DNA of 64,000 nucleotides, from NCBI GenBank assembly GCA_963662795.1, contig OY759746.1, positions 640,001 to 704,000 on the forward strand, written 5' to 3'. Source of the DNA: Spirochaetia bacterium. Its GTDB lineage: Bacteria > Spirochaetota > Spirochaetia > CADAEX01. The position numbers and the translations under genes were made by a program. Under the pieces are notes generated by a model that searched no databases, was not told the origin of the DNA, and saw only the letters and a list, made by a program, of their open reading frames with translations. Within the stretch, counting starts at the first letter, position 1. Each line of letters starts with the position of its first letter. Below are positions 8,899 to 27,583 of the stretch, piece after piece.

Positions 8899-10059
8899 TT
8901 ATCCCCTTAATACCTTTTTATAAATATTTTCAATATCACTTACTGTCATCTCTTTCGGATTATTATCCAGAAGTCTTCTGACATTAAAAGCTGATTCTGA
9001 TAACGAAGGTATATCACTGACAGGAATATTAAATTTATCAAAGCTTTCCTGTATTGCAAGATCATCAACAAGTCCATATAAATGCCAGATAAATAAATCA
9101 GCTTTATCCCCAGTTTTCATATGTTTATCAGCAATTCCGGCAGTTTCTGCAGCAATTGCGAGTTTATCGATTATTTTTTCCTTGTTGAAATCCATTACCG
9201 GTGCAAGCAGTACTGCATTTGCAACTCCATGCGGTACCCTGTATTTTCCTCCAAGAGGGTATGAAAGGGCATGTACCGCGGTTGTGCCGGAAGATGCAAT
9301 TGCCGCTCCGCCGTAAAAAGAGGCAAGCAGCATCGAAGATCTGGCTTCTATATTGGAACCTTCAATAAAAGATTTTTTTAAAGAAGAAAGTATGAGCCTG
9401 ATTCCTTCCAGCGCTATCATATCACTGAACAGATTTGCCTTTTTTGATATATAGCATTCCAGAACATGGCATAGGGCATCAACGCCTGTCGATGCAGTGA
9501 GGTGTTTCGGAAGAGATACAGTAAGCTGGGGATCAAGAATTACATAGTCAGGAAGAAAAAATCTGCTGATAATACCTTTTTTGATATTTTCTCCCCTTAT
9601 TGCAATAATTGAATTTGGGGTAGCTTCAGAGCCTGTTCCTGAAGTAGTCGGTATCATGACTACCGGTATCCCTCTCTCATTTACTCCGTTTTCAATTATT
9701 TCAGAAACACTTGAGTTGTTTTTAAGCATAACCGATATCAATTTTGCAGTATCCATCACACTGCCGCCACCTACCGCAATTATCAGGTCAATTCTCATGC
9801 CAAACAAGTTTTTATTTATTCCTGTAACTTCATCATCATACGGCTCTGCAGGAATACCATCGATAATTATTATATTGCCAGCAATAGTCTTGATATTGTT
9901 CAGTACCAAATCACAAATACCAGATTTTCTAACGCCCTGATCAGTCAGTAATATTATTTTTCCGTCTTTAATATTTTTTGAAATTTCGTTTAATTTTGAA
10001 ATCTCTCCAAAGCCGAAAAAAATATTGCCTGGAAGAGATGAACTGAATTTATCTGACAT
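8899..10059 (-). CDS. Iron-containing alcohol dehydrogenase
   Basis: GGGSVMD, PTTSGTGSE, DALCH, HALSY, HGVAN. Confidence 0.9.
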   Translation of the reverse strand: MSDKFSSSLPGNIFFGFGEISKLNEISKNIKDGKIILLTDQGVRKSGICDLVLNNIKTIAGNIIIIDGIPAEPYDDEVTGINKNLFGMRIDLIIAVGGGSVMDTAKLISVMLKNNSSVSEIIENGVNERGIPVVMIPTTSGTGSEATPNSIIAIRGENIKKGIISRFFLPDYVILDPQLTVSLPKHLTASTGVDALCHVLECYISKKANLFSDMIALEGIRLILSSLKKSFIEGSNIEARSSMLLASFYGGAAIASSGTTAVHALSYPLGGKYRVPHGVANAVLLAPVMDFNKEKIIDKLAIAAETAGIADKHMKTGDKADLFIWHLYGLVDDLAIQESFDKFNIPVSDIPSLSESAFNVRRLLDNNPKEMTVSDIENIYKKVLRG

Positions 10060-11317
10060 TATCAATGACTCCTATTAATTGCAGTATTTTAATTATTGCG
10101 TCTTCTTCTCCAAAACCGCCGGCTTTTGTGACTATGGATATATCCCCCATATTTTCTTTTCGTATCAATTTCATAAGAGGTATTCCGGGAAGTATTTCCC
10201 TGTCAAATATGACACATTCGGTTTCAAGAAATGATACAACTTCATAGGCAGTATCACCTCCTGTAATAAAAAGCGTATCAATACCATATTCAGCGATGAG
10301 ATCCCTTATAAGTTTGCCCAGAAAACCAGAAACAACTTTACCGTCTTCCGGCTGGGGAAGATTTTTCTTAATCGGGGTTTTATCACTGCTGGCTGTTGTT
10401 CTGATCACTACAGGCAGCAAATTGCTGTTTTCAGTTATTTTAGCTTTTATCCGCTCAATTTCTCCGGCAGGATCTGTTTTCATTCTAGCAATATCAAGAA
10501 GAATTGAAAGATTTTCAACTTCTCTGGCAAATCTGTCACCCTGAAGATTGCTTGTCCTGGTAAGACTTCCAATAACTATTAGAACTTTTTTCCCTATTGA
10601 TATTTTTTTCCCATTATGATTGTCCTGTTTTGAACATAATGCCTCTGCCATACCTGAAGATCCTGCGATGAGTATTTCACTGTCAGTTTCTATTGAAGAA
10701 ATAATTTTCAAATCATTTATCGTTTCTGCATCTGCAATAATTACCTTTTTACCGTTGTTAATCTGATTGTAAAATTCCTTAAGAAAATCAGCCTCACCTT
10801 TCCTGATTACAGAAAGACCGATATGCCCTGTCTGATGGCGGAATCTGTTTTCAATTATTTTAACAACATTTGAGCTGATTACAGGATTAAATGGATCATC
10901 ACCGGATTCAGTGTTTTTGACAGGCATACCGTTTGCATAGCATATCCCGTTTTTTACTGTTCTGTTGTTACGGGGAGCAGAAGGAGCAACTAATGCGGCC
11001 CTAAAACCGGCAGCATCGATAATAGCTTCAATCTCGATACCTATATTGCCCCTCATAGTTGAATCAATTTTTTTAAATATCTGCTTTATTCCATGGGAAA
11101 CACAATCAGCAGCCACATCGTAAACTTTTTTATAGGCAGTTGCTTCATCATCAAATCTTGATTCAGTATTAATTACCTTTACATCACATTCTTTATATTT
11201 TGATGCCGTATTGTTATTAATAAATAATACCGGCATATATCCGGCTTTGCGGTAATGAATGGCAGAATCGGCGGAACCTGTAAAATCATCAGCTATTATA
11301 CATTTTTCTGGTTTCAT
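10049..11317 (-). CDS. Four-carbon acid sugar kinase (DUF1537/DUF1357, DtnK-like)
   Basis: IADDFTGS, KKIDSTMRGN, TGGDTA, TKAGGFG. Confidence 0.92.
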   Translation of the reverse strand: MKPEKCIIADDFTGSADSAIHYRKAGYMPVLFINNNTASKYKECDVKVINTESRFDDEATAYKKVYDVAADCVSHGIKQIFKKIDSTMRGNIGIEIEAIIDAAGFRAALVAPSAPRNNRTVKNGICYANGMPVKNTESGDDPFNPVISSNVVKIIENRFRHQTGHIGLSVIRKGEADFLKEFYNQINNGKKVIIADAETINDLKIISSIETDSEILIAGSSGMAEALCSKQDNHNGKKISIGKKVLIVIGSLTRTSNLQGDRFAREVENLSILLDIARMKTDPAGEIERIKAKITENSNLLPVVIRTTASSDKTPIKKNLPQPEDGKVVSGFLGKLIRDLIAEYGIDTLFITGGDTAYEVVSFLETECVIFDREILPGIPLMKLIRKENMGDISIVTKAGGFGEEDAIIKILQLIGVIDNVR

Positions 11318-11331
11318 TATGGCAACTTAAC

Positions 11332-11348
11332 TGCATTTTCTGTGCCAA
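11332..11348 (-). promoter_or_regulatory. sigma54 -24/-12 promoter
   Basis: Minus strand TTGGCAC-AGAAA-ATGCA, adjacent to a sigma54 activator gene. Confidence 0.8.
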
Positions 11349-11453
11349 TTTATGAATCCAGGAATTTATTAATGATAACTCCATACATTATAATTATTTA
11401 TTTATATTTTTTTTATTAAATATTTATTGAATCACAATACTAATGGTGATTTT

Positions 11454-13337
11454 TTAATCATCTATGATAGATAATTCACCAGCTAATTTCTTTTTCAAAG
11501 TGTTCCTGTCAATGACAAGACGTCTGGCTGTTCGTGATATATTCCGGTTTTCTTCTTCAAATATTTTTTTTATAATGCGGTTTTCTATTTCTGCAAGCGA
11601 ACCTTCACCTATGCTGTAATTACCAGATAAGGCTGAAGCAGTAAATAATCTCTCAAGATTTTTTTCTGCATACTCATTCCCATTCATATTATAAAGAATA
11701 GAAAACCGTTCCGCCATATTTTCCAATTCACGGATATTTCCCGGCCAATAGTATTTTTTCAGTATTTTTTTAAAACTACTGCTGAGTGAATTAAGTGCAA
11801 TTGTATTCCCGCTATATTTTTTAATATATATCTCGAATATCGGAAGTATATCCTCTACCCGCTGCCGAAGGGGAGGAATATTTATTTCGAGGACATTCAA
11901 CCTGTAATAAAGGTCTTTTCGGAATTTTCCCTTTAAAATTTCTTCTTCAAGGTTCCGGTTTGTAGCTGCTATGATTCTAACATTGATCGGGATAATCTTG
12001 TCATCGCCTATTCTTCTGATCTCTTTTTCCTGAAGAACACGAAGAAGTTTTGTCTGCAGATTTATATCAATTTCACTGATTTCATCAAGAAAGATTGTTC
12101 CATTATGCGCAGCCTCAAAAAGCCCATGGTGACCGCTCTTTGAGGCACCGGTAAAAGCACCCTCGATATAACCGAAAAGTTCACTTTCAAGAAGATTATC
12201 AGTCAAGGCAGCACAATTTACAGCTATAAACGCTCCGTCGTGAACAGGACTGTTGTTATGAATGCTTTGTGCAACAAGTTCCTTACCAGTACCGGTCTCT
12301 CCATATATTATAATATTACTCCTGTTTCTGCTGTACTGTTTTGCTATGGCAATGCAGTCTTTCATACAGCTGGATACATAGAAAATATCCTGAAAAGTGT
12401 ACCTGGCCTGATGACCTTTGTTTTGAAGCTGTTTCCGTATTGTTATTTCAAAGTCACGGATTGTCTCGGATTTCAGAAATGAAATAACAAGTCCTTCTGT
12501 TTTTCCACTTATAATAATGGCACGTGTATTATAGGCAAAACTCCCGCAGGAAAGATTAAAAATACCACCTGCCGATAGATTGTTTTTTTTAATCAAATTC
12601 TCATATTCTATTGACGGAATAATATCGCTAATATGTTTTCCTGGAATTGTTCTGAATTCTGTGCCAAGATAAGCCAATCCCTGCTGGTTAATCTGCCTTA
12701 TTATCCCTTTTTTATCTATATTGATGATACCTTCACTTACTGAATTCAAAATAGCATTTATTTTAGCAGCATTTTCCAGATGGTCTTTTGTACTTTTATA
12801 GATCAGTACTGCTTTTTCAAAAGCTTCTTTTAACGCTTCTCTGCCTGATTCTATCAAAAGATAATTCAAATTATATTCTTCAGCTTTTTTTACTGATATT
12901 ACATCCCCGATAACAATATCAGCTTCCTTGTCTGCAATTTCAGACATTATATCAGGCAAATCCTGATCACTTTCAAGAGTAAATATTTCAGCAGGAATAT
13001 CCAGGATATTGCAAATGGCTTTTGCAGGATGCGTTAAATTTTCAAAACCTACTATTGCTATTTTTTTTCTCAATCCTTTTAATTTCTTAAGATTTTCAAG
13101 AAGATCATAAAAAGAAACTCCTACTTCAATTACAGGTATTTCCAGCTGTTTTTTTATAAGGCTGGCAGTTCCGCCCCTGCTTACAAAAATACATCCGTGT
13201 TCATACCTGTATCTGTCAGCAATTTTAACTCCTTCAGAAAGGTCTCCAATGTGAGTCTTGATCTCTATATCATAATCATCAGCAATACTATCCGCAATAT
13301 TCTTAAGTTTTTCATATGGAGCTATAAATACAATCAT
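11454..13337 (-). CDS. PrpR-type sigma54-dependent activator (PrpR_N-PAS-AAA-HTH)
   Basis: SRGGTA, GETGTGKE, GAFTGA, WPGNIREL, C-terminal Fis HTH. Start moved to the ATG at 13337, downstream of a TGnTATAAT box. Confidence 0.92.
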   Translation of the reverse strand: MIVFIAPYEKLKNIADSIADDYDIEIKTHIGDLSEGVKIADRYRYEHGCIFVSRGGTASLIKKQLEIPVIEVGVSFYDLLENLKKLKGLRKKIAIVGFENLTHPAKAICNILDIPAEIFTLESDQDLPDIMSEIADKEADIVIGDVISVKKAEEYNLNYLLIESGREALKEAFEKAVLIYKSTKDHLENAAKINAILNSVSEGIINIDKKGIIRQINQQGLAYLGTEFRTIPGKHISDIIPSIEYENLIKKNNLSAGGIFNLSCGSFAYNTRAIIISGKTEGLVISFLKSETIRDFEITIRKQLQNKGHQARYTFQDIFYVSSCMKDCIAIAKQYSRNRSNIIIYGETGTGKELVAQSIHNNSPVHDGAFIAVNCAALTDNLLESELFGYIEGAFTGASKSGHHGLFEAAHNGTIFLDEISEIDINLQTKLLRVLQEKEIRRIGDDKIIPINVRIIAATNRNLEEEILKGKFRKDLYYRLNVLEINIPPLRQRVEDILPIFEIYIKKYSGNTIALNSLSSSFKKILKKYYWPGNIRELENMAERFSILYNMNGNEYAEKNLERLFTASALSGNYSIGEGSLAEIENRIIKKIFEEENRNISRTARRLVIDRNTLKKKLAGELSIIDD

Positions 13338-13472
13338 TACTATATAATTATAACATAAAAAGCAGACACTCAAATATATATATTTGGCATTGATCTCTAT
13401 TAACTTTCAGGAGTACATCATTATGCATAAATTTCTTGACAGATAAATCATTGTACCTGAAAATAAATCACG

Positions 13473-13820
13473 ATGAAACTGCTTGTGTTTGTCTTAAACA
13501 AGGAAGAGCTTCTCGAAGAAGTGCTTGCCGCATACCTTGAGGCAGGCATTCCAGGCGCTACAATTCTTGATTCCGAAGGAATGGGGAGATTTCTAACCTA
13601 TGAAGTTCCCCTTTTTGCCGATTTCAAGGAATTCATGAAGGGAAATAAACCATACAATAAAACAATTTTCTCTGTCATTCAGAACGAAAAATCGATTCCC
13701 CGTCTTGAAAAACTGCTTGATAAGGTCTGCGGCGGCCTTGATGAACCTGGAACAGGAATTCTCTTCACTCTCCCTTTAGATTATGCCAGGGGCCTTGTGC
13801 CTGCAGATACGGAGGATTGA
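13473..13820 (+). CDS. PII-like (GlnB-fold) protein, transporter-associated subfamily
   Basis: 115 aa, GATILDSEGMG and GTGILFTLP; lacks the canonical GlnB T-loop YRGxEY. Confidence 0.75.
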   Translation: MKLLVFVLNKEELLEEVLAAYLEAGIPGATILDSEGMGRFLTYEVPLFADFKEFMKGNKPYNKTIFSVIQNEKSIPRLEKLLDKVCGGLDEPGTGILFTLPLDYARGLVPADTED

Positions 13821-13821
13821 T

Positions 13822-14283
13822 TTGCTTAAATTATCCAGGATGCTTGATAAAGAGTGTATTAAACTTGAGATGAGCGCTGTCAGGAAAAGGGACGCGATTT
13901 CGGAACTCCTCGAAGTCCTTAAAGATAACGGGAAAATAGATGATACAATACCGCTGCTTAACGATATCTGCGAGAGGGAAAAATCAGCTTCAACCGGAAT
14001 AGGCTATGGAATAGCCATCCCGCATAAAATTGTTGACGGGCTTGAAAAAACAATAATAGCGTTTGGAAGAAAAAAAGAGGGGATCAATTTTGATTCAATT
14101 GACGGGAAACCGGTCTCCCTCTTTTTCCTTATACTGGGGAAGGAAGGAAGCACGGGAAGTCATCTGCGGCTCTTAAGCAAACTGGCAAGACTTCTTCATG
14201 ACCCTGATTTCAGGGAATCACTTTCCAGCGCGCAGTCGGCTGAGGATATCATTAACGCCTTTGCCCGGGAGGATGATGAATGA
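13822..14283 (+). CDS. PTS EIIA (Fru/Ntr-type), stand-alone
   Basis: RE..ASTGIGYGIAIPH (phospho-His), FDSIDGKPV, HLRLLSKLARLL. TTG start at 13822 after GGAGG. Confidence 0.9.
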   Translation: MLKLSRMLDKECIKLEMSAVRKRDAISELLEVLKDNGKIDDTIPLLNDICEREKSASTGIGYGIAIPHKIVDGLEKTIIAFGRKKEGINFDSIDGKPVSLFFLILGKEGSTGSHLRLLSKLARLLHDPDFRESLSSAQSAEDIINAFAREDDE

Positions 14284-14792
14284 ACCTGGCTGCAAAATGG
14301 AAAATCACAAGGATATTACTTACTTCAGTTTATCTTTTCGCGGGGTGGATGCTGTTTACGGGAAGCCTTAATCCCTTTTCCATGGCTATGGGCCTTTTTT
14401 TTTCAGTATTAACAGCGCGTTTAACCTACAGCCTCTTCATAGATGAAAAAGAGGCTGAAAGACGGGGGCTTGTCTTTAAGGTTCATTTTCTTGTTTTTTA
14501 TCTTTTATTTCTATTATTTAAAATGTATGCCTCGAGCTTTGCGGTTTTATACAATGTCATAAGGGGCAACATAAATCCGAGAGTTGTTCATTTCAGAACA
14601 AGGCTCAAATCCGACATTGCGCGCGTTATCCTTACAAACTCAATTACGCTTACTCCCGGAACAATAACCTTAAGCCTTGACGATGACCATCTGATAGTCC
14701 ACTGGCTTGAGGCAAAGACAACACATTCGCGCTATGCCGGGGAACTTATCAAGGGTAAAATGGAAAAAATACTGAAAAGGATTTTTGTATGA
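14280..14792 (+). CDS. mnhE: Mrp/Mnh antiporter subunit E (MbhA-like)
   Basis: NSITLTPGT, LIVHW. Confidence 0.88.
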   Translation: MNLAAKWKITRILLTSVYLFAGWMLFTGSLNPFSMAMGLFFSVLTARLTYSLFIDEKEAERRGLVFKVHFLVFYLLFLLFKMYASSFAVLYNVIRGNINPRVVHFRTRLKSDIARVILTNSITLTPGTITLSLDDDHLIVHWLEAKTTHSRYAGELIKGKMEKILKRIFV

Positions 14793-15061
14793 ATACGCAG
14801 ACCGCATTCAGCGTTATTATCTATCTTTTTATCGGTTCCGGCGTTATAAGCCTTTACCGGGTTATCTCCGGCCCTACAGCAGCAGACCGCCTGATCGGGT
14901 TAAATATTATATCAGCCCAGATACTTGCGGTTCTGGTTCTGTTCGCTGCTATGGAAAACCTGCATGTTTATCTTGATGTGGCGCTTGTCTACGATATATT
15001 CGGATTTGTCGGCATACTCGCTATCGCAAGGTATACCGGAAAAAAAGAAGAGTTAAAATGA
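14789..15061 (+). CDS. mnhF: Mrp/Mnh subunit F (MbhB-like)
   Basis: GPTAADRLIG, LDVALVY. Confidence 0.88.
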   Translation: MNTQTAFSVIIYLFIGSGVISLYRVISGPTAADRLIGLNIISAQILAVLVLFAAMENLHVYLDVALVYDIFGFVGILAIARYTGKKEELK

Positions 15062-15366
15062 CAGAATGGATAGTCTTCGGTTTTCTGATTCTGGGAGCCG
15101 TATTTAATCTGATGGGGCTTCTCGGCGTCCTTATTTTTCCTGATCCCTATACGCGGCTTCAGGCTTCATCGACATGCAGCACTACCTCGGTTATGTCAGT
15201 ATTTATTGCGGCAATGATAGAATCAGGCATCTCGGCCGTTACCGGAAAGATACTTGTAATAACCCTGTTCTTTTTCATTTCAAGCCCGGTATCAGCCCAC
15301 ATCATAGCGTGTTACGCCTGGAATAATGAAATAATCCCCTGGCGGCGAAAGGGGGGACCGGAATGA
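15058..15366 (+). CDS. mnhG: Mrp/Mnh subunit G (MbhC-like)
   Basis: FPDPYTRLQA, SPVSAH. Confidence 0.88.
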   Translation: MTEWIVFGFLILGAVFNLMGLLGVLIFPDPYTRLQASSTCSTTSVMSVFIAAMIESGISAVTGKILVITLFFFISSPVSAHIIACYAWNNEIIPWRRKGGPE

Positions 15367-15596
15367 CAACACTGCTTCTTGCCCTGCACGTCCTGCTTGC
15401 TGTTATAATCCTTGTATCACGTAATATGCTGACCGCGGTAATCCTCCTTGCGGTTTTAAGCCTTTTCAGCAGCCTTCTGTTCTTCATACTGCACGCGCCT
15501 GATGTCGCACTCACAGAGGCGGCCGTAGGAGCAGGCGTCTCTACTTTTCTTTATATCTGGATAATACGGAAAACTGAAATGGAGATAAAACCTTGA
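15363..15596 (+). CDS. DUF4040 / MbhD-like membrane subunit
   Basis: APDVALTEAAVGAG. Confidence 0.85.
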   Translation: MTTLLLALHVLLAVIILVSRNMLTAVILLAVLSLFSSLLFFILHAPDVALTEAAVGAGVSTFLYIWIIRKTEMEIKP

Positions 15597-15847
15597 AAAG
15601 GCTGTTTCATATTCTGATAATTGCTGTATTCTCACTTTTGCTTATCTTTGCTCTTCTCTTCGCTGACCACAGGGCGCCGGATACGGCAAAACAGTTTCTT
15701 CTTGAAAAAAGCTACGTTGAAACGGGGGCGGCAAACCTGGTTACGGCGATATACCTCGGATACAGGGCTTTTGATACGCTTGGAGAGACAATTGTGCTTA
15801 TCGCCTCTGTTACAGGCGTTGTATTTCTTATGGGAAGCAGACAATGA
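15593..15847 (+). CDS. MbhE-like membrane subunit
   Basis: NLVTAIYLGYRAFDTLGE. Confidence 0.85.
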   Translation: MKRLFHILIIAVFSLLLIFALLFADHRAPDTAKQFLLEKSYVETGAANLVTAIYLGYRAFDTLGETIVLIASVTGVVFLMGSRQ

Positions 15848-16266
15848 AAAAAACAGATATACTTGATGTCGTATCACGTAAATTGGCTCCTTTCATACTG
15901 CTCTTCGGATTTTACCTGCTGACATACGGGCACCTCTCCCCCGGCGGAGGGTTTCAGGGAGGGGTTACAATAGCATCGGCTGTAATCCTGCTGTTTCTTG
16001 CCAGGGGGACCGCAAGGGTCCTTGAGGTGTTTCCCCTTAAATCTGTTCATTACACCGAAGCATACGGATTTTTTGCATTTTTATTGACAGGTATTGCGGG
16101 TCTTGTTTACGGACAGGGTTTTCTATCCAGTTTTCTGAAAGTACAGGGGACCGGAGCAATCCCCGGCGGCGGCACAATCTTATTACTCAACATTATAATC
16201 GGGCTTAAGGTAGGCGCAGGCATAACGCTTATCTGCTATTACCTTTTCAAAGAGAAAGAGGAATAA
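15844..16266 (+). CDS. mnhB: Mrp/Mnh subunit B (MbhF-like)
   Basis: GHLSPGGGFQGG, IGLKV. Confidence 0.88.
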   Translation: MKKTDILDVVSRKLAPFILLFGFYLLTYGHLSPGGGFQGGVTIASAVILLFLARGTARVLEVFPLKSVHYTEAYGFFAFLLTGIAGLVYGQGFLSSFLKVQGTGAIPGGGTILLLNIIIGLKVGAGITLICYYLFKEKEE

Positions 16267-16604
16267 TGATTAACCTGACACTTATCGCGGCCCTGTTTAT
16301 TACCGGCGTTTCCGGTCTCATACTTTCCGGAAACCTTATAAAAAAGGTTATTGCCCTTGGAATCATAAACTCATCTGTTATTATTTTATTTATATACACA
16401 GGTTCCCTTTCAGGCGTCCTTGCTCCGATAATTACCGCCGGAGAAATGAATATTGTAGATCCTCTTCCTCAGGCCCTGATGCTTACTGCAATTGTAGTCG
16501 GGTTATGCATAACAGCCCTTGCGCTTGCCTTAATCTACAGGTTATACAGGCTTTACGGATCGCTTGATATAAGAGAAATTGAAAAAAAGGCAAGGCGCCC
16601 GTGA
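16266..16604 (+). CDS. mnhC: Mrp/Mnh subunit C (MbhG-like)
   Basis: NLIKK, DPLPQALMLTAIVV. Confidence 0.9.
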   Translation: MINLTLIAALFITGVSGLILSGNLIKKVIALGIINSSVIILFIYTGSLSGVLAPIITAGEMNIVDPLPQALMLTAIVVGLCITALALALIYRLYRLYGSLDIREIEKKARRP

Positions 16605-18304
16605 ACAATCAGCTGATTATCCTGTTTGTAATCATACCTCTTGCCGCCTCGTTTTTCGCTCTTATCGGCAAGATCAGTCACAGCAGGAATTCCGTCATGG
16701 CAAAAACTGCGGCAGCTTTCTCATTCGCGGCCGGGTTTTTACTCCTGATGCTCTTTTCCGATGTGGTATCAGGCGGGAATGTTTACAGCAATGTTATAGG
16801 GAACTGGTCAATCATTACAGGAATAAGCCAGAAACTTGACCGGCTTTCATGGACAGGACTCGCACTGATGAACATAGTCTCATCCCTTTCACTGCTTTAT
16901 GCTTTTTCAGAAAATAAATATGACAGCGATTTTTATTTTTTCTTTTTGCTTCTTCACGCGGGAATGGCGGGCATGCTCCTTGCGGATGATCTTTTCAATC
17001 TGTTTGTATGTCTTGAGATTACAGGAATCAGCACCTACGTTCTTATCGCATATACCAAAAAGGAAAAATCAATATTCGCAAGCTTTAAATATCTTATGCT
17101 CAGTTCACTCGGGATAAGTCTTTTCTTAATAGGCATTTTTATTGTTTACAGACAGACCGGATCTTTATTTTTTGACGATATGAAGAGAGTATTTTCTTCG
17201 AACAATACACATACACCTGAAACTGCTTTTGCCGTTTCAGCTTTGATTTCCGGGATCGGGGTAAGGACCGCGTTTATCCCCTATACGTGGCTTCCTGACG
17301 CGCACGCTTTTGCCCCCCACCCTGTCTCTGCCGTGCTTTCAGGCGTGCTTATAAAAGTTTCCTTTTTCGCGGTCTGGAAGCTTATAACTGTGCTTGATAT
17401 TTTTGAGGCAGGAATGTTCCTCCTCTGGATGGGAGCGGCAATCGCGCTGATAGGAGTACTGCGGGCGCTGTCGCAGACAGACTTCAAGGTACTGCTGGCA
17501 TGGCACTCGGTGTCCCAGATGGGCTTTATCTTCGCAGGATTCGGAGCCGGCACCTCCCTTTCAGTTACAGGGGCAATGTTCCATGCCATAAGTCACGGTC
17601 TTTTCAAAAGCCTCCTCTTCCTCTCTGTCAGCCTTGTAATAATAAAAACAGGAGAAAGGTCGCTTGACAGGATTTCAGGGATGGCAAAAAAAATGCCTCT
17701 GGCGGCGCTGCTTTTCGTTATCGGAGCGTTAAGCATAACAGGCATTCCCCCGTTTACAGGGTTTGTCAGTAAAAATCTGATCCTTTCGGGATTAAAGGAT
17801 TACCCTGCCGCATACTGGATTCTTATTGCCTCATCAGTTGGAACAGTGGCCTCTTTTACCAAGCTGTCGCTTGTTTTCAGGGGAAAACTTTCACCCTCAG
17901 CATCAGCAGCTTTTACCGCAGTTCCTGCCGCAGGACCTGATGGCGGTACACCCGGTGTAAAAGCCGCAGGAGGTAACAGCTTTTTTGCAGGATACACAGG
18001 CATGGGAATTCTCGCCCTCCTTTGTCTTCTTGCAGGTATATTCGGCGAACAGCTTGCATCAGCACTTAACTTTTCTGTTCCGGGACCCGGCGGACCGGAG
18101 ACAGCTTCACCATGGAAAATATCAGAATATATTAAAACCGCTTTTATCATAATTTCAGGGATATTATGTTATTTTTTTATAATGAGCAGGCCCGGTAAAT
18201 ACCTGCAGAAAAAAGCAAGAAATATTCAGCTTTCATTTGATTCACAGCTAGTGCTTTTACTGGCCGGTTTTCTGGCTTTATTGGCTTTTTTATATTTCCA
18301 ATAA
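16601..18304 (+). CDS. mnhD: Mrp/Mnh subunit D (MbhH/NuoM-like)
   Basis: DLFNLFVCLE, WLPDAH..AP.PVSAVLSG, HGLFKSLLF, GIPPFTGFVSK. Confidence 0.9.
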   Translation: MNNQLIILFVIIPLAASFFALIGKISHSRNSVMAKTAAAFSFAAGFLLLMLFSDVVSGGNVYSNVIGNWSIITGISQKLDRLSWTGLALMNIVSSLSLLYAFSENKYDSDFYFFFLLLHAGMAGMLLADDLFNLFVCLEITGISTYVLIAYTKKEKSIFASFKYLMLSSLGISLFLIGIFIVYRQTGSLFFDDMKRVFSSNNTHTPETAFAVSALISGIGVRTAFIPYTWLPDAHAFAPHPVSAVLSGVLIKVSFFAVWKLITVLDIFEAGMFLLWMGAAIALIGVLRALSQTDFKVLLAWHSVSQMGFIFAGFGAGTSLSVTGAMFHAISHGLFKSLLFLSVSLVIIKTGERSLDRISGMAKKMPLAALLFVIGALSITGIPPFTGFVSKNLILSGLKDYPAAYWILIASSVGTVASFTKLSLVFRGKLSPSASAAFTAVPAAGPDGGTPGVKAAGGNSFFAGYTGMGILALLCLLAGIFGEQLASALNFSVPGPGGPETASPWKISEYIKTAFIIISGILCYFFIMSRPGKYLQKKARNIQLSFDSQLVLLLAGFLALLAFLYFQ

Positions 18305-18356: not shown

Positions 18357-19829
18357 ATGATCAGCGTGCCTACGATTATTACATTTGTTCTTTATTTCTT
18401 TTTTCTTCTCTGGGTAGGAATCCACTTTTACAGGAAAACAACAAATATTGACGACTACCTTCTCGGGGGCCGTAAAATGGGAAGCTGGGTTACAGCCCTC
18501 TCCGCCCAGGCAAGCGATATGAGCGGATGGCTTCTGATGGGTCTCCCCGGCGCCGTATACCTTTCAGGCGTCAACCAGAGCTGGATTGCGATAGGCCTTC
18601 TGATCGGAACATTTCTGAACTGGATTCTTGTAGCTCCAAGGCTTCGCCTGTATACACAGGAGAAAGAATCCATAACGCTTTCAACATTTTTCGAAAGAAG
18701 ATTTAACGACCCCACAGGTCTTTTAAGAATAATATCGGCTATAATAATACTTGTTTTCTTTACAATATACGCTTCATCCGGTCTTGTCGGAGCGGGCAGG
18801 CTTTTTGAATCAATGTTTAAAATTGATTTTAAAATAACAGTAATAGCCGGCGCATTTGTAATGATTTTATATACATTCCTCGGCGGTTTTATGGCTGTCT
18901 GCTGGACCGACCTGTTTCAGGGAACACTTATGTTTATAGCCATAATATCTGTCCCTGTTACAGCATATTTCCATATTGGAGGATATTCCAATATTGCCGC
19001 GGCAATAGAAGCGAACAGGATATCGATGTCGCTCTTCAGGGACGGCACCGGAGCACTTTCCTTTTTAACTATAATATCCACAGTAGCATGGGGCCTCGGA
19101 TACTTCGGCCAGCCCCACATTCTTGCAAGATTCATGAGTATCAAATCCATAAAAGAGCTGCCAAAATCAACAGCAATTGCAATGATATGGGTTACGATTT
19201 CCCTCACAGGTGCAGTTTTTGTCGGGCTTATAGGGATTCCTATTTTCCCGGGTCTTTCCGGCGGATCGGAGGAAAAAATATTTATCTACATGATAGACAA
19301 ACTTTTCAATCCCTGGCTGGGAGGAGTATTCCTGGCTGCTATTCTGGCAGCCATAATGTCGACAATTGATTCCCAGCTTCTCGTTTCATCATCAGCGTTG
19401 ACAGAAGATTTCTATAAGCATCTTGTCAAAAAAGACGCATCAGATGCCCAGCAGATATGGATGGGAAGGGTCTGCGTCCTGATAATTTCAGCGATAGCGC
19501 TGTTCCTGGCGTTAACGCCCGGAAATACGGTTATGGGACTTGTTTCATACGCGTGGGGGGGATTCGGAGCAGCGTTCGGGCCTATAGTCTTAACCTCGCT
19601 CTTTTCAAAAAAAACATCATGGCAGTCTGCTCTCGCGGGAATGGTAACAGGAACAGTTGTCCTTGTCCTCTGGAAAAATACAGGCATGGGAAATTATCTG
19701 TATGAAATAATACCGGGATTTATTTCCAATTTCATCGCAATCTGGCTGTTCAATCTGAAATTCTCCCATGACAGTTCCGGAGAGATTGAAAATATTGAAA
19801 AACAGATTAAAGAGATAAAAAATCTGTAA
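18357..19829 (+). CDS. putP: Sodium/proline symporter
   Basis: ALSAQASDMSGWLLMGLPG, WGLGYFGQPHILARFM, MSTIDSQLLV. Confidence 0.93.
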   Translation: MISVPTIITFVLYFFFLLWVGIHFYRKTTNIDDYLLGGRKMGSWVTALSAQASDMSGWLLMGLPGAVYLSGVNQSWIAIGLLIGTFLNWILVAPRLRLYTQEKESITLSTFFERRFNDPTGLLRIISAIIILVFFTIYASSGLVGAGRLFESMFKIDFKITVIAGAFVMILYTFLGGFMAVCWTDLFQGTLMFIAIISVPVTAYFHIGGYSNIAAAIEANRISMSLFRDGTGALSFLTIISTVAWGLGYFGQPHILARFMSIKSIKELPKSTAIAMIWVTISLTGAVFVGLIGIPIFPGLSGGSEEKIFIYMIDKLFNPWLGGVFLAAILAAIMSTIDSQLLVSSSALTEDFYKHLVKKDASDAQQIWMGRVCVLIISAIALFLALTPGNTVMGLVSYAWGGFGAAFGPIVLTSLFSKKTSWQSALAGMVTGTVVLVLWKNTGMGNYLYEIIPGFISNFIAIWLFNLKFSHDSSGEIENIEKQIKEIKNL

Positions 19830-22080: not shown

Positions 22081-22530
22081 TCAGTCTTCCCTGAAAAGCT
22101 CCACAACTTCTTCGGGAGTAGCAGCATTTACAAGAAGCCGGCAGAAACTCTGCGAACGGGTTATCCTTGCAATTTCAGCAAGCGCTTCAATATGAGGGCC
22201 TGACTGATTGGGCTGGGCAAGAAGAAGGAAAAAAAGCTTTGACTTTTCACCGTCAAGAGCGTCAAAATCAACTCCGTCCGGAGCAATTCCGATAGCAAGG
22301 GTGAGGTTTTTAACTTTTTCTGTTTTGGCGTGGGGAACAGCAATCCCTTTTTCAAGGCCTGTGCTTCCCATGTTTTCCCTTGCGATTACAGCATTGAAGA
22401 CGCTTTCCTTATCGCTGATTTTATCTGCTTTATCGAGAACATCAACCAGTTCCCTGATTACTTCTGTTTTGGTTTTTGATTTCAGCGGGACTCTTACCAC
22501 GCTGGTTGATATAAGATCTACTATAGCCAT
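22081..22530 (-). CDS. PTS EIIA (Fru/Ntr-type), stand-alone
   Basis: RENMGSTGLEKGIAVPHAK, FDALDG, HIEALAEIAR. Confidence 0.9.
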   Translation of the reverse strand: MAIVDLISTSVVRVPLKSKTKTEVIRELVDVLDKADKISDKESVFNAVIARENMGSTGLEKGIAVPHAKTEKVKNLTLAIGIAPDGVDFDALDGEKSKLFFLLLAQPNQSGPHIEALAEIARITRSQSFCRLLVNAATPEEVVELFRED

Positions 22531-22569: not shown

Positions 22570-23058
22570 TTAAACAAGCTGATTGTAAAGACTCCAGATG
22601 CGCTCTTCATCCTTGGCAATCAGTACAGAACAGTTTACACTTCTCATTGCCCTTTCTGTCTCGTTGTAAAGCTCATCTCTCCTGCTTCTTATTTTTGAAA
22701 GTTCACCTATTATTAAAAGATCAATTTCATTTTCATTAACCTTGTTCTTTATTTCCACATTGACGCTTCCGCTTGATTTAAGGGTTTTTACAGCTACCCC
22801 TTTCTCTCTTGCCATTTGTTTAATATGGTTAAGATACCTGTCAGCATCATGTTCAAGGTCTTTTTTATATTCCTCTTCCTCAGCCTGCAGGAATATTTTA
22901 GCGTTCACAAGGTCGCTCAGGGCCCTTGTATTTACAATGTATAATGCATAAAACTCTGCTCCGGTCGCCCTTGCAAGGCAGATTCCGTACTGGGCAGCTG
23001 TTATCGATTCTTCAGTGCCGTCAACATATACCATTATCTTTTTAACAGGTCCGTCCAT
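22570..23058 (-). CDS. Universal stress protein
   Basis: KKIMVYVDGTEES, DLLIIG, CSVLIAK. Confidence 0.88.
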   Translation of the reverse strand: MDGPVKKIMVYVDGTEESITAAQYGICLARATGAEFYALYIVNTRALSDLVNAKIFLQAEEEEYKKDLEHDADRYLNHIKQMAREKGVAVKTLKSSGSVNVEIKNKVNENEIDLLIIGELSKIRSRRDELYNETERAMRSVNCSVLIAKDEERIWSLYNQLV

Positions 23059-23072
23059 GAAGCTCTCCTGAA

Positions 23073-23711
23073 TTAATTATCGCTTTTTTCTTTTTTCTTT
23101 TCCAGTCTTGTTTTAATCATTTTAAGGAGGATAATCATATCCCTCTCATTCTCCTCAAGCCTGTTCTGAATATATTTTACTGTTTCCTTAAGTTCCGGAA
23201 TGGCAATCTTCTCAAGAGCGTTAACCTTCCGGATTGTTTTTTTGACTTCCCTTGCAAGCCGCATGATTGATATTTTAAGCTCAGCAAGTTTTCCCATAAT
23301 CTGGAGAACTGCCTTGAATTCATTAAGGGAGCTGTCAATCCAGAAACTGTTGTTCATCGGGCTGTAGTAAGGGGGATAATCATCAAACTCCGTATCAACT
23401 ACAGGAAGACCTACCCCCATTACTTTTCTCTGGGTAATTTTAACCCGGCTTTCAATATTTATGGCGCTTGCTACCTGAGTCACTTTCAGTTTACCCATGT
23501 CGATGACAGCCTCTTCAAGTGTCCTGTACGCTTCAGCAAGGGCTTTTTCCACTTTCTCCTCATGATCTGCGGCCTGGTCAACAAGATTTAAAAGCTCTAT
23601 GACGAGAATGTTTCTTTTCTGGTCAAGCAGCTCATAACCCAGTCTTGCGAATTTTAATTCATGGCCGAGAGAGAGCAGGTTGGTTTTTGTAGGCGCTATA
23701 TTGGTTTTCAT
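23073..23711 (-). CDS. atpD: V/A-type ATP synthase subunit D
   Basis: PTKTNL, GYELLDQKR, RKVNALEK. Confidence 0.93.
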   Translation of the reverse strand: MKTNIAPTKTNLLSLGHELKFARLGYELLDQKRNILVIELLNLVDQAADHEEKVEKALAEAYRTLEEAVIDMGKLKVTQVASAINIESRVKITQRKVMGVGLPVVDTEFDDYPPYYSPMNNSFWIDSSLNEFKAVLQIMGKLAELKISIMRLAREVKKTIRKVNALEKIAIPELKETVKYIQNRLEENERDMIILLKMIKTRLEKKKEKSDN

Positions 23712-25123
23712 TATCTGCCGTAATACTTTTCGATCTCTTCTTCAGTAACCCTGTGAAGTTCATCCTGGGGAAGAAGGCCGAGACATTCCCATCCTAAATT
23801 CAATGTTTCCTCAATTGATCTGTCTTCGCTCATTTTCTGGGAAACAAACCGTCTTTCAAAAGCTTCGCCGAATTCCATATACTGATGATCAAGGGGGGTC
23901 AGCTCCTCCTCTCCGATAACAGAGGCCAGGTTTCTTACATCCTTGACATAGCTGTAGGCAGCGAAAAGCTGGCTGGCAAGATGGGGATGGTCCTCCCTTG
24001 TCATTCCTTCTCCGATACCGTCTTTCATAAGTCTTGAAAGGGAAGGCAGCCCCGCTACCGGCGGATAAATATTTCTGCTGTACATCTCTCTTTCAAAAAC
24101 TATCTGCCCTTCAGTAATGTATCCTGTAAGGTCAGGGATCGGATGCGATATATCATCGTTAGGCATGGTCAGAATAGGAAGCTGGGTGATTGACCCGCTG
24201 AAACCTTTTACCATTCCTGATCTTTCGTAAAGTTCTGCAAGGTCAGAGTAAAGATATCCCGGATATCCTTTCCTTGAGGGTATTTCACCCCTGATTGTTG
24301 AAATCTCGCGGAGCGATTCGCAGTAATTAGCCATATCTGTCATGATTACAAGTACGTGCATGTTCTTGTTGAATGCCAGGTGCTCGGCAAGGGTAAGGGC
24401 GGTACGGGGTGTAATGGTTCTTTCTATTGAAGGGTCATCTGCCAGAGAAAGGAAAAGCGCGACATTGTCGAGGACTCCTGTCTCTTCAAAAGACCTTACA
24501 AAGTACCTGGCAACATCATGCTTTACACCCATTGCCGCGAAAACTACGGCGAAATTTGTCTTGCTCCCCTTTATTTTTGCCTGCCGCGCTATCTGTGCAG
24601 CAAGTTCGTTATGAGGCAGCCCGTTGCCCGAGAATATCGGAAGTTTCTGCCCCCGGATCAGGGTATTCATGCCGTCAATTACGGAAATACCTGTCTGGAT
24701 AAAGTCTTTCGGATACTCTCTCGCTGTGGGATTGATTGCCATGCCGTTTATATCAAGTTCAGTCTCTGCGACAGGCATCGGCCCGTTGTCTATCGGGTGG
24801 CCGAGACCGTTGAAAACACGCCCGAGCATTTTCTCGCTTACGCCGAGCTTGAGCGGTTCGCCCATGAACCTTATATGTGTATCCGGCATCGTAAGACCGG
24901 AAGTCCCCTCAAAAACCTGAACACAGACTATATCGCTTGAAGTATCAAGGACAAGGCCGAGCCGTGTTGCACCTGAAGGGTCAACGCATTCCACCAGCTC
25001 GCGGTATCCGACAGCATGTGTCTTTTTTATAAATACCAGCGGCCCGTCAATCCTGTCTACACCGATATATTCAAGCCCTGTTTTGAGTTTTTTCTGCTTT
25101 TCATGCATATCTATCTTAGACAT
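23711..25123 (-). CDS. atpB: V/A-type ATP synthase subunit B
   Basis: [33 protein letters not shown]. Start moved to the ATG at 25123. Confidence 0.95.
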
Positions 25124-26888
25124 ATACGCTCTCCAGTTGATCAAGTGACCTTTCAAGTCTTGCGGTAAGCTTATCGAGAAGTTTAAGATCTTCGTTAGGC
25201 ACATTGAATTTCATCTTTACAATGTCCTGGTTAACACTCATTTTCTTGAGCTTCACAAGGGTACCGCCCCTCTTTAAAACCTCGGCTCCCCTTCTGTAAT
25301 ATGTCAGAATTACCTGAAGCATCTTCATCTGTTTTTCAACAGTTGAGAATCTGTCAATATCATCAAAAGCGTTCTGCTGAAGAAACGCGTTCTTGAAAAG
25401 GGTACAGACATCAATTATGAATTTCTGACTGTCGGGAAGTGCGTCCGGCCCTACAAGTTTTACAACCTGCTGAAGCCTTACCTCTTTCTGCAGCAATTCC
25501 ATAATCTCCGCCCTGTCATCAGACCATGTAGGGCCGGCATGCTGTTCCCACCAGGGAATAACCTCAAGAAGGTATTCGCTGTAGCTCTCAAGCCATGAAA
25601 TAGCCGGATAGTGGCGCGCGTTGGCAAGCTGCCGGTCCAGGCCCCAGAAACACCTTACAAACCGTTTTGTATGCTGTGTTACAGGTTCTGAAAAGTCGCC
25701 GCCCGGAGGAGATACAGCTCCGATAAGGGAAACCGAACCATCTTTGCCGCACAGCGTATTCATGTAGCCGGCCCTTTCATAGAACTCGGCTATCCTTGTT
25801 GGAAGATACGCCGGAAAGCCTTCCTCTGCAGGCATCTCTTCCATACGGCCGGAAAGCTCTCTTAAAGCCTCTGCCCATCTTGATGTCGAGTCTGCCATTA
25901 CGGCCACATGGTAACCCATGTCCCTGTAATATTCCGCCAGTGTTACACCGGTGTATATGCTTGCCTCTCTTGCGGATACAGGCATGTTGGATGTATTCGC
26001 GATAAGAATCGTCCTTTCCATAAGGCTTCTGTTTGTCCGCGGGTCGATGAGCTTGGGGAATTCCGTGAGAACATCTGTCATCTCGTTTCCCCGCTCGCCG
26101 CAGCCTATATAAACAATAAGGTCTGCATCGCACCACTTGGCAATGGCGTGCTGAGTCATTGTCTTTCCTGTCCCGAACCCTCCCGGGATTGCGACAGTAC
26201 CGCCCTTGGCAATCGGGAACAGGGTGTCTATAACCCTCTGTCCTGTGATAAGGGGAATATTAAGCGGCTGCCTCTCTTTTACAGGGCGGGGGACACGTAT
26301 GGGCCATCTCTGGATCATGGTAACATTGACATCGCCGTCTTTAGTTTCAACAACTGCTATAGGATCTTCTACAGCGTATTCCCCTTCAGGGAATAATTTC
26401 TTTAAAGTGCCGCTAACGCCTGGAGGAATGAGAATTTTGTGATTTATCCTTTCTGTTTCCTGCACTGACCCTATAATCTCACCAGGATAGATAATATCGC
26501 CGGTTTTTATATCTTCAGGGACAAAACTCCATTTTCTTTCCTTATTGATGGAAGAAACCTGGATTCCCTTTTCAATATAATGACCTGATATTTTGTATAT
26601 TTCTTCAAGCGGCCTCTGGATACCGTCATAGATTGTTCCTATAAGACCGGGGCCCAGCTCTACCGATAAAGGCATGCCTGAACCGTAAATATTATCTCCG
26701 GGGCAAATACCGGTTGTATCCTCATATACCTGGATTACAGCGGTCTGCCCTTCAAGTTTTATTATCTCACCGATAAGACGAACTTCAGCTACCCTTACCA
26801 GTTCAAGCATCATCGCGTCTGTAACGCCTTTTGCTTCAATTACAGGTCCATTAACCCTTCTGACCTGTCCGATTATCCGTTCTCTCAT
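25116..26888 (-). CDS. atpA: V/A-type ATP synthase subunit A
   Basis: [10 protein letters not shown]-loop, [21 protein letters not shown]. Confidence 0.96.
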
Positions 26889-26941
26889 TCCGAACCTCTA
26901 TCTTGTTTCAGGCTGCACTACTTTGCTTAATCAATATCAGT

Positions 26942-27583
26942 TTACGCGAAAAACTCTTTATGTATTGTTTTCCGCATTTCAGCCTGATATCTTAAAAGCC
27001 TTGTAGGTACCTGATTGTTAAATGCTGTTTTATTATTCCTTGATGTTAAAACCACGCCCTGGGCGAAAAGAGGATTTTTATCTGATTTTACAAGATGTAT
27101 TTTCCCGCCTGTCAGATCAAAATACCTTTTTTCAGTTTCCCTTAAAAAACTATCACTTAAGATTTCAAGTTCTTTTACAGAACCGTTTATTACAGCCTCG
27201 TCCTCGCCAAGCCCGATAGCAGCATCAAGAATCCAGCCCCGCAGGATTTCAGGATAATCTTTTGATTTTCCTATCTCCCCGATTATATCCCGGACCTTCT
27301 CAACAACATTGTTAATTACTTTTTCCCTGATCTTGAGTACTACCCTTTTCTTTTCAACAGATATTGCCGACGCGCTGTTCTTTTCAATTACTGCTACCTG
27401 CTGCTCAATTTTTTTTGCCGTATCCCTGTCTATGGATTTAATCTGCATCTCTTTGGACATCTGTTTATCTGAGGCTGTTTTTTCGGCATCTTCAATAATT
27501 CTTTTTGCCTCTTGTTTCGCGTCCAGGGTAATACCTGAAATCAATTCGCTTCTATCGTCACTGGATGTTTTCATATTCTGCAC
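26942..27583 (-). CDS. atpE: V/A-type ATP synthase subunit E
   Basis: Coiled-coil N-terminus, GVVL...FNN, operon position. Confidence 0.8.
   Translation of the reverse strand: MQNMKTSSDDRSELISGITLDAKQEAKRIIEDAEKTASDKQMSKEMQIKSIDRDTAKKIEQQVAVIEKNSASAISVEKKRVVLKIREKVINNVVEKVRDIIGEIGKSKDYPEILRGWILDAAIGLGEDEAVINGSVKELEILSDSFLRETEKRYFDLTGGKIHLVKSDKNPLFAQGVVLTSRNNKTAFNNQVPTRLLRYQAEMRKTIHKEFFA

Follow-up and report, generated by a model that had tools for sequence, protein, structure and literature searches.

Tolerance of salt and of pH depends centrally on Mrp antiporters, which also represent the evolutionary core of complex I. Gating of transporters by PII-family proteins, as in GlnK-AmtB, SbtB-SbtA and PotN with PotABCD, and control of cation transport by EIIA proteins of the phosphotransferase system (PTS), as when PtsN (EIIA-Ntr) acts on TrkA and KdpD, are both known principles. 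Here we describe a spirochaete operon in which genes for a PII-like protein and for an EIIA precede those of a predicted Mrp antiporter. The operon fills positions 13473-18304 of the window, the 64,000-nucleotide (nt) stretch of contig OY759746.1 that was analysed. We propose, with a probability of roughly 0.55, that the PII-like protein and the EIIA are a cytoplasmic sensor pair that gates Mrp antiport, acting as a detachable regulatory domain.

For the EIIA, the comparison is with Escherichia coli PtsN and the CPA1 antiporter YcgO (CvrA). In both cases a stand-alone EIIA_2 protein with a phosphorylatable histidine is linked to a cation/proton antiporter, the phosphorylation state is the proposed signal, and the PTS branch is regulatory rather than sugar-transporting. 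The accessible text of the YcgO report describes how unphosphorylated PtsN binds and inhibits this K+/H+ antiporter (PMC11808508). Several characteristics set the spirochaete case apart. YcgO belongs to the CPA1 proteins and carries a CorC/RCK tail, whereas the target here would be the multi-subunit Mrp. The spirochaete EIIA comes with an obligatory PII-like partner, scores below the PtsN equivalog cut-off, and has its gene in the operon of its putative target rather than in an rpoN operon; its binding to that target is a proposal.

The PII-like protein resembles GlnK, SbtB and PotN in its predicted PII fold with a T-loop, and in having a gene that adjoins the transporter it would control. It differs from them in family (its Pfam P-II score is below the cut-off, and it barely aligns with the genome's own PII), in a T-loop that is longer and of other sequence, in the missing ATP-binding Lys and Arg residues, and in its EIIA partner and its putative antiporter targets.

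The antiporter resembles the stand-alone Mrp of Pyrococcus furiosus. The accessible text on that system describes an mrpEFGBB'CD operon with neither an MrpA homologue nor an energy-input module, and its authors state that the driving force and the control of this MrpA-less type are unknown (PMC8415708). Both operons begin with E-F-G, lack the MrpA N-terminal module, have a single MrpD and encode the MrpA C-terminal part as small proteins. Unlike that of P. furiosus, the operon described here is bacterial, has two genes (MbhD-like and MbhE-like) against one MrpB, and begins with two signalling genes, none being mentioned in the accessible text on Pyrococcus (PMC8415708). With the group 1/2 Mrp complexes of Bacillus and Anoxybacillus it shares homologous small subunits, including an MrpE whose cytoplasmic ferredoxin-fold domain is placed at the proposed cation entry (PMC7419157; a further structure is in PMC9568556). 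In those complexes, by contrast, MrpA supplies a second antiporter-like module, and signalling partners of their own are lacking. A search of the full-text literature, with subscription journals and supplements outside its scope, returned no paper on PII-like or EIIA control of Mrp, or on a PII-like/EIIA pair acting on antiporters, in agreement with an earlier note on this DNA that knew of no described PII or EIIA regulation of Mrp. Nor did a post-translational regulator of any Mrp come up in the searchable literature.

The operon and its conservation

Ten abutting or overlapping open reading frames (ORFs), all on the forward strand, make up the operon. The first encodes the PII-like protein of 115 amino acids (aa), with its predicted PII fold and long T-loop (13473..13820), and the second a stand-alone PTS EIIA_2 protein that matches Pfam PTS_EIIA_2 (13822..14283). 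The EIIA can be read as 153 aa from TTG 13822, which lies one base past the TGA of the PII-like gene and in frame with the EIIA ORF, or as 147 aa from ATG 13840; we favor the former because orthologues are 147-159 aa long and mostly share that start point. The Mrp genes follow, all above their Pfam cut-offs, and comprise E, F, G, B, C and D together with pieces of the MrpA C-terminal domain. They are MrpE/MnhE, which is MbhA-like (14280..14792; MNHE, 6.4e-34), MrpF (14789..15061; MrpF, 7.5e-14), MrpG (15058..15366; MnhG, 4.5e-21), an MbhD-like gene matching the first part of the MrpA C-terminal region (DUF4040; 15363..15596; MbhD, 1.5e-20), an MbhE-like gene matching its second part (15593..15847; MbhE, 5.4e-09), MrpB/MnhB, which is MbhF-like (15844..16266; MnhB, 1.1e-28), the NuoK-like MrpC (16266..16604; Oxidored_q2, 4.1e-22) and MrpD of 567 aa (16601..18304; Proton_antipo_M, 6.3e-62). 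The EIIA stop codon overlaps the MrpE start (ATGA, 14280-14283), and the Mrp genes join by overlaps of 1 to 4 nt, with the MrpC ATG starting on the final base of the MrpB stop codon. The gene content and coordinates agree with the earlier note, which had read a PII-like gene, a 1-nt gap, an EIIA and an ATGA overlap into mnhE and seven more abutting subunits.

MrpD is the sole Proton_antipo_M subunit of the operon. By Pfam, the second such protein, the MrpA N-terminal module, is absent from it, and the three other Proton_antipo_M proteins of the genome belong to a hydrogenase-like operon. The genome (3.93 Mb, one contig, 98% complete) holds neither a second member of the PII-like family nor a second E-F-G Mrp operon. 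From its gene content, the predicted product of the operon is a cation/proton antiporter of the Mrp family that lacks MrpA and has a single antiporter-like subunit, like the stand-alone Mrp of Pyrococcus.

The association of the pair with Mrp is strongly conserved. The close PII-like family has 904 matches in the protein collection, with 71-100% identity among the 120 matches listed. A scan in which each species was represented by a single genome detected a relative in 300 genomes, and we surveyed the loci of the best 80 of these 300 by tblastn; as labelled, they are mostly Spirochaetota, with six KSB3/Moduliflexota, four Aerophobota and one unclassified, and at least one carrier, L065, is a named strain of Marispirochaeta type. 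MrpE lies no more than 900 bp downstream of the PII-like gene at all 75 loci with at least 1.2 kb of downstream sequence, and an EIIA stands between the two genes at 74 of the 77 loci with at least 600 bp. All of E, F, G, B, C and D are present at 52 of the 54 loci with at least 5 kb downstream, the exceptions having no detectable MrpD (L030) or no detectable MrpF (L053). The three loci without an intervening EIIA are L006, L011 and L024; an EIIA is found about 7.3 kb downstream of the PII-like gene in L006 and about 5.8 kb downstream in L011. In L036, uncounted because it has too little downstream sequence, MrpE directly follows the PII-like gene. At 71 of 76 loci, under a start-choice rule that favors small gaps, the EIIA gene starts within -8 to +4 nt of the end of the PII-like gene, and the predicted translational coupling of the two is kept. 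Median identity to the window's proteins is 45% for EIIA, 40-61% for the Mrp subunits and 77% for the PII-like protein, the last value being inflated because the loci were picked by PII similarity. Conservation across genomes places the arrangement far beyond chance.

One locus arranges the same genes differently (L166, 4526-9101, reverse strand, genome G119). Its order is E-F-G-MbhD-EIIA-PII-B-MbhE-C-D, so that the pair stands inside the Mrp operon, and its EIIA_2 is a weak match (1.8e-5). By its gene order, this is an independent layout of the association with Mrp.

The pair goes with one Mrp subtype. Among 401 evenly drawn Spirochaetota genomes, 69 have an MrpE and 24 have the PII-like family at E ≤ 1e-10; a close PII-like copy occurs in eight, the window's own genome included, and MrpE lies about 0.5 kb downstream of it in seven but not in the eighth, G110. 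We compared these loci with 20 spirochaete Mrp loci that have no nearby PII-like match, in stretches of 7.6-10 kb. No EIIA or PII-family ORF was found within any of these 20 stretches. At least two antiporter-like subunits are present in 17 of them, and two of the remaining three are cut by the end of the stretch. Of 41 PII-associated loci that extend at least 7.5 kb downstream, 35 have a single antiporter-like subunit, four have two, one has three matches and one has none. The absence of the pair from the other loci, together with these subunit counts, indicates that the pair is an accessory of the MrpA-less type and not a general Mrp subunit.

The flanks of the operon add the following. A promoter-like site, TTGACA-17-GAAAAT (13436..13464, forward strand), matches 10 of 12 consensus positions and ends 8 nt before the first ATG; an mRNA from it would be nearly leaderless. 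Promoter-like matches number 9 in the region against 9.2 ± 2.9 in shuffled sequence, and the promoter and terminator scans as a whole gave counts equal to those of shuffled sequence. Because its match frequency is that of shuffled sequence, the site is no promoter evidence, and the earlier statement that one promoter precedes the operon finds no backing in these scans. Divergent genes at 10049-13373 (reverse strand) encode a sigma-54 PrpR-like activator (TIGR02329, 1.8e-105, below cut-off) and a D-threonate-kinase-like protein. On account of this activator a sigma-54 promoter was considered and rejected, as no TGGCAC-N5-TTGC match was seen upstream of the PII-like gene when read by eye. Downstream, PutP, a Na+/proline symporter (18357-19829; TIGR02121, 2.1e-192), starts 52 nt past MrpD; it lies outside the conserved unit, since it adjoins only in the two closest relatives (L001 and L002).

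The PII-like protein, its EIIA partner and their family

Sequence comparison places the first protein only weakly with PII: it scores 19.4 bits against Pfam P-II (PF00543), whose gathering cut-off is 25, no NCBIfam model matches it, and the best E-value of a PDB profile search is 0.0053. The fold bears out the name PII-like. An AlphaFold model (pLDDT 75) has a twice-repeated beta-alpha-beta fold, running from a strand (residues 2-8) through a helix (11-23), a strand (30-33) and a loop, of which residues 36-47 are of low confidence, to a strand (63-69), a helix (74-86) and a last strand (95-101). In a Foldseek search of the PDB, canonical PII proteins take every top place (E 3.6e-6 to 3.6e-5, probability 1.00), and the PotN structure 7o4x is also among the matches. 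The modeled PII fold is thus confirmed at the superfamily level. The T-loop region (residues ~36-62) is longer than in PII and nearly invariant across the close clade, and all 24 orthologues in an alignment begin with MKL.

A separate true P-II is encoded elsewhere in the genome (2747685-2748038; L175 2686-3039), with 83.7 bits in Pfam and the motifs GDGKIF and RIRSGE. The two proteins of this one organism, which has both a true PII and a PII-like protein, are barely alignable (hhalign E 0.07). Identification of the first protein as a canonical nitrogen PII is ruled out by this value, by the Pfam score below cut-off and by the lack of an NCBIfam match; some public sources annotate its relatives as 'nitrogen regulatory protein P-II'.

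In E. coli GlnB, the ATP phosphates are bound by the GDGK of the B-loop and by basic residues near the C-terminus. Alignments of the PII-like protein show a B-loop of GTGI(L/F)F where canonical PII has GDGKIF, and the C-terminal RxR is absent, with GLV at the place of RIRSGE in the genome's own PII. With GTGI replacing GDGK and the C-terminal arginines absent, the ligands that had been suggested at the outset, adenylate or c-di-AMP, are guesses that the sequence does not support, though either may still be right. The genome has a gene for the c-di-AMP cyclase DAC (3774116-3774469).

The EIIA is a clear member of PTS_EIIA_2 (PF00359; 129.5 bits, 1.2e-37). Its phospho-histidine is His68, in an AIPH motif, and a second conserved histidine is His114; at least 97% of 75 orthologues keep both, and neither varies at all in an alignment of 40, so that the intact phospho-His read from the sequence at first is both present and conserved. 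Because the protein scores below the PtsN equivalog cut-offs (TIGR01419, 91.5 against 138.7; NF008145, 73.9 against 221) and just above that of the fructose IIA domain model, which it barely passed (107.1 against 103.5), we call it a stand-alone EIIA_2 and not PtsN.

We next consider whether the two proteins bind each other. Three PII-like chains modeled with one EIIA, the EIIA being the partner scored, gave an ipSAE of 0.44 (runs 0.44, 0.44 and 0.46), with 0.00 for the best of three controls, at least 91% agreement of contacts between runs and a partner pLDDT of at least 88. In the calibration set, 58 of 80 solved complexes pass the ipSAE mark, as do 2 of 110 mismatched pairs; both of these mismatches score 0.60 or under, and among the solved complexes only 7 pass with such a score. 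This weak score, taken together with natural fusions in both orders, makes it likely that the PII-like protein and EIIA form a complex.

The fusions come from a large unnamed family of PII fold to which the protein belongs. When 1.84 billion representative proteins were searched with a close-clade profile, 1016 clusters matched at E ≤ 1e-3; of these, 442 also passed E ≤ 1e-10 and 11 passed E ≤ 1e-30. Fusions with EIIA occur as PII-EIIA (P0121) and as EIIA-PII (P0175 and P0235); a search for longer relatives found one close fusion only, and the further fusions came from the representative-protein search. At seven of seven Spirochaetota loci examined, the fused EIIA-PII gene directly follows a Na_H_Exchanger gene.

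A sister clade extends the association to other transporters. From a 12-sequence alignment as query we obtained 80 metagenome loci. Of the 71 with enough upstream sequence, 61 have an EIIA gene immediately before the PII-like gene, L161 being a further case missed only through its ORF call. Downstream, CPA, CLC and Mrp genes were looked for at the 61 loci with at least 600 bp. A CPA-type pair comes directly after in 22 of them, and within 4.5 kb in four more. In L121 (6341-8826) and 21 similar loci this pair consists of a Na_H_Exchanger protein (1.9e-28) and, without a match to any Pfam model, a divergent paralogue of it (25% identity to its neighbor, E 2e-15). Five loci have a CBS-domain CLC channel nearby (L099, L107, L115, L119 and L135), where the PII-like/EIIA pair lies up to about 3.5 kb upstream of the CLC chloride channel/antiporter, and at some of these a Ser/Thr kinase with a PEGA domain and HisRS intervene. 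Mrp follows in one of the 61, and in L141, too short to be counted, MrpE is again the next gene.

A maximum-likelihood tree of 54 family members groups the PII-like proteins by context, with support of 98/99 for the Mrp clade and 100/100 for the fused-CPA clade. The genome's true PII has a very long branch in this tree, and the place of L166 is unsure because of a long branch. At locus L162 (5011-7714), the PII-like sequence ends a 747-aa open frame and the EIIA gene follows; the first 630 residues of this frame have no Pfam match, and it may be an ORF-calling artefact or a new fusion.

The phosphotransferase proteins of the genome

Phosphorylation of the EIIA depends on its PTS partners. Evidence for enzyme I (EI) is a PEP-utilizers_C match in a 595-aa frame and another in an 866-aa frame that also bears an HPr match, and a separate HPr adjoins HprK. 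EI and HPr are thus present, as a predicted phosphorelay able to charge EIIA. No match to PTS_EIIC (PF02378), PTS_IIB (PF02302) or EIIC-GAT (PF03611) was found genome-wide, other EIIC families lying outside the search; the earlier remark that no EIIB or EIIC is nearby therefore extends to the whole genome for these three families. A sugar-transporting PTS is ruled out on the same three Pfam families, and the genome's PTS looks purely regulatory.

All five EIIA_2 domains of the genome adjoin ion-translocating systems. Beside the one that adjoins Mrp (window 13822-14283, forward strand), a second stand-alone EIIA_2 (3.1e-35; window 22081-22530, reverse strand) is the last gene of a V/A-ATPase operon and comes after a universal stress protein (Usp) gene. 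A third domain, in an HTH_17-EIIA fusion, heads a group-4 hydrogenase-like operon (L081 4788-14902; genome ~2203788-2213900). A further HTH_17-EIIA fusion carries the fourth, and its gene overlaps a Na_H_Exchanger-CBS gene at the latter's start (L172 3808-6136, reverse strand). The fifth belongs to an EIIA-CBS protein whose gene comes after those of V-ATPase c and I subunits and immediately before that of a CitMHS/ArsB-type permease (L173 3941-8661, reverse strand). With five EIIA domains at ion systems, PTS control of ion transport is the natural reading for the EIIA of the window.

Two of these neighborhoods can be described further. The V/A-ATPase operon (E, A, B and D) and the universal stress protein gene lie at window 22570-23058 and 23073-27583, with their EIIA 8 kb from the Mrp operon. 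The hydrogenase-like operon, which resembles that of a membrane-bound group-4 enzyme, encodes three Proton_antipo_M proteins, a NuoH-like protein, a large subunit of fused 30/49-kDa type and a small subunit of Fer4 plus 20-kDa type.

Gating by the pair and competing explanations

In the mechanism that we propose, the PII-like protein and the EIIA would be made alongside Mrp in fixed proportion. The EI/HPr relay would phosphorylate the EIIA at His68, giving a report of carbon and energy state through the phosphoenolpyruvate (PEP)/HPr signal, while a PII-like trimer would bind a metabolite in its inter-subunit sites and change the shape of its T-loop. The pair would then dock on the cytoplasmic face of Mrp and open or close antiport, much as unphosphorylated PtsN inhibits YcgO and as GlnK or SbtB plugs AmtB or SbtA. 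The PII-like protein is probably the nearest partner to the transporter, since it persists beside MrpE where the EIIA is displaced or absent and since its clades follow transporter type. The pair could plausibly dock where cations are proposed to enter, on MrpG and the ferredoxin-like domain that MrpE has in the cytoplasm. In the accessible text of Steiner and Sazanov, the ferredoxin-fold domain of MrpE is cytoplasmic and at the likely cation entry, and gating is suggested (PMC7419157). From the earlier proposal of an ion-homeostasis module, the module itself gains support from the conserved synteny, the L166 layout, the fusions, the recurrence beside other antiporters and a PTS without a match to the three permease families searched; its named ligands do not.

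Several observations weigh against gating by the pair. Most spirochaete Mrp operons manage without it (MrpE in 69 of 401 genomes, the PII-like family in 24), and in genome G110 (L162) a close PII-like gene and its EIIA gene are distant from the Mrp operon. The 80 surveyed loci are the best PII-like matches and hence sample one clade. Nor does the pair always adjoin a transporter: in the sister clade, 29 of the 61 loci have none of CPA, CLC or Mrp nearby, and their neighbors include genes for a protein kinase and for HisRS. The PII-like protein lacks the residues with which canonical PII binds the ATP phosphates. The score of the PII-EIIA complex is graded 'weak support' by the tool's own calibration, and a natural EIIA-PII fusion modeled as a monomer folds in both domains (pLDDT 79.7) with a pTM of 0.54, from just nine sequences. 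That the pair touches Mrp, which way it shifts antiport, where it docks and what ligand it binds are all inferred.

These observations leave some room for other arrangements of the same parts. The EIIA alone could bind the transporter, as PtsN binds YcgO, with the PII-like protein only setting the phosphorylation or availability of the EIIA, for example by ligand-dependent sequestering. Binding of an antiporter by an EIIA has the published precedent noted above (accessible text of PMC11808508), the fusions and the weak complex score point to a PII-EIIA contact rather than a PII-transporter contact, and the four other EIIA proteins of the genome stand at ion systems with no PII-like partner. 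We nevertheless consider this version unlikely, because the PII-like gene comes directly before MrpE with no EIIA between them in L006, L011, L024, L036, L141 and L142, because PII-like clades track transporter type in the tree, and because the PII-like protein is far more conserved than the EIIA, even if the loci were picked by PII similarity. To a pair that is co-expressed with Mrp and acts elsewhere, passing an ion or energy signal to transcription factors, the PTS or other enzymes, we assign similarly poor odds. It would suit the 29 sister-clade loci lacking the transporter kinds searched for, the pairs in L171 and L162 that adjoin no transporter, and the many targets that canonical PII and PtsN each have; it fits badly with the tight coupling to the first Mrp gene at 75 of 75 loci, with the pair embedded in the Mrp operon of L166, and with the pair's recurrence beside three unrelated classes of ion transporter.

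It is less likely again that the PII-like protein is a structural or assembly subunit of the MrpA-less Mrp and no signal-dependent regulator, even though the pair is confined to Mrp with a single antiporter-like subunit (as at 35 of 41 loci, where 17 of 20 others have at least two), is very highly conserved, and by its translational coupling implies a set production ratio. A subunit of this kind would hardly be expected in a family that also occurs with CPA, with CLC or with no transporter, or beside an EIIA that is predicted to be phosphorylatable and whose histidine is invariant; moreover, the stand-alone Mrp of P. furiosus consists of seven mrp genes, with no such partner mentioned in the accessible text (PMC8415708). 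We give hardly any credence to an ordinary nitrogen PII and an ordinary sugar-PTS EIIA lying beside Mrp by chance, which the results contradict. The public 'nitrogen regulatory protein P-II' labels and the EIIA score just over the fructose IIA cut-off are in its favor, and they are outweighed by the separate true P-II of the genome with its poor alignment to the PII-like protein, by the lack of a match to the three EIIB/EIIC families, and by synteny that is kept across phyla. Gating of Mrp by the PII-like/EIIA pair remains the explanation that we prefer.

A broader proposal goes further, and we hold it tentatively, as something that is rather more likely wrong than right. The spirochaete PTS would no longer serve sugar uptake and would instead be a master regulator of the ion-motive economy, with the PII-like family as its ligand-sensing adaptor between EIIA and antiporters. 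One EI/HPr/HprK relay would feed five EIIA outputs, each on a different ion machine: Mrp, the V/A-ATPase, the group-4 hydrogenase-like complex, the CPA antiporter, and the CitMHS/ArsB-type permease beside further V-ATPase genes. The PII-like adaptor would couple EIIA to antiporters that have no regulator of their own, namely MrpA-less Mrp, RCK-less CPA and possibly CLC, forming a two-input switch of phosphorylation state and metabolite that would act directly on membrane exchangers. Within this proposal, the same control probably extends beyond this spirochaete to many uncultivated bacteria.

If gating of Mrp by the pair is correct, a dedicated PII-like/EIIA pair would be the control mechanism for MrpA-less Mrp. 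The PII-like proteins would form a large new PII subfamily with hundreds of sequence clusters, found in genomes labelled Spirochaetota, Moduliflexota or Aerophobota and in many unlabelled metagenome contigs, and EIIA control of ion transport would go from the enterobacterial PtsN cases to a general principle. In the organism itself, the pair probably ties ion balance to metabolic state, as a switch that has not been described before.

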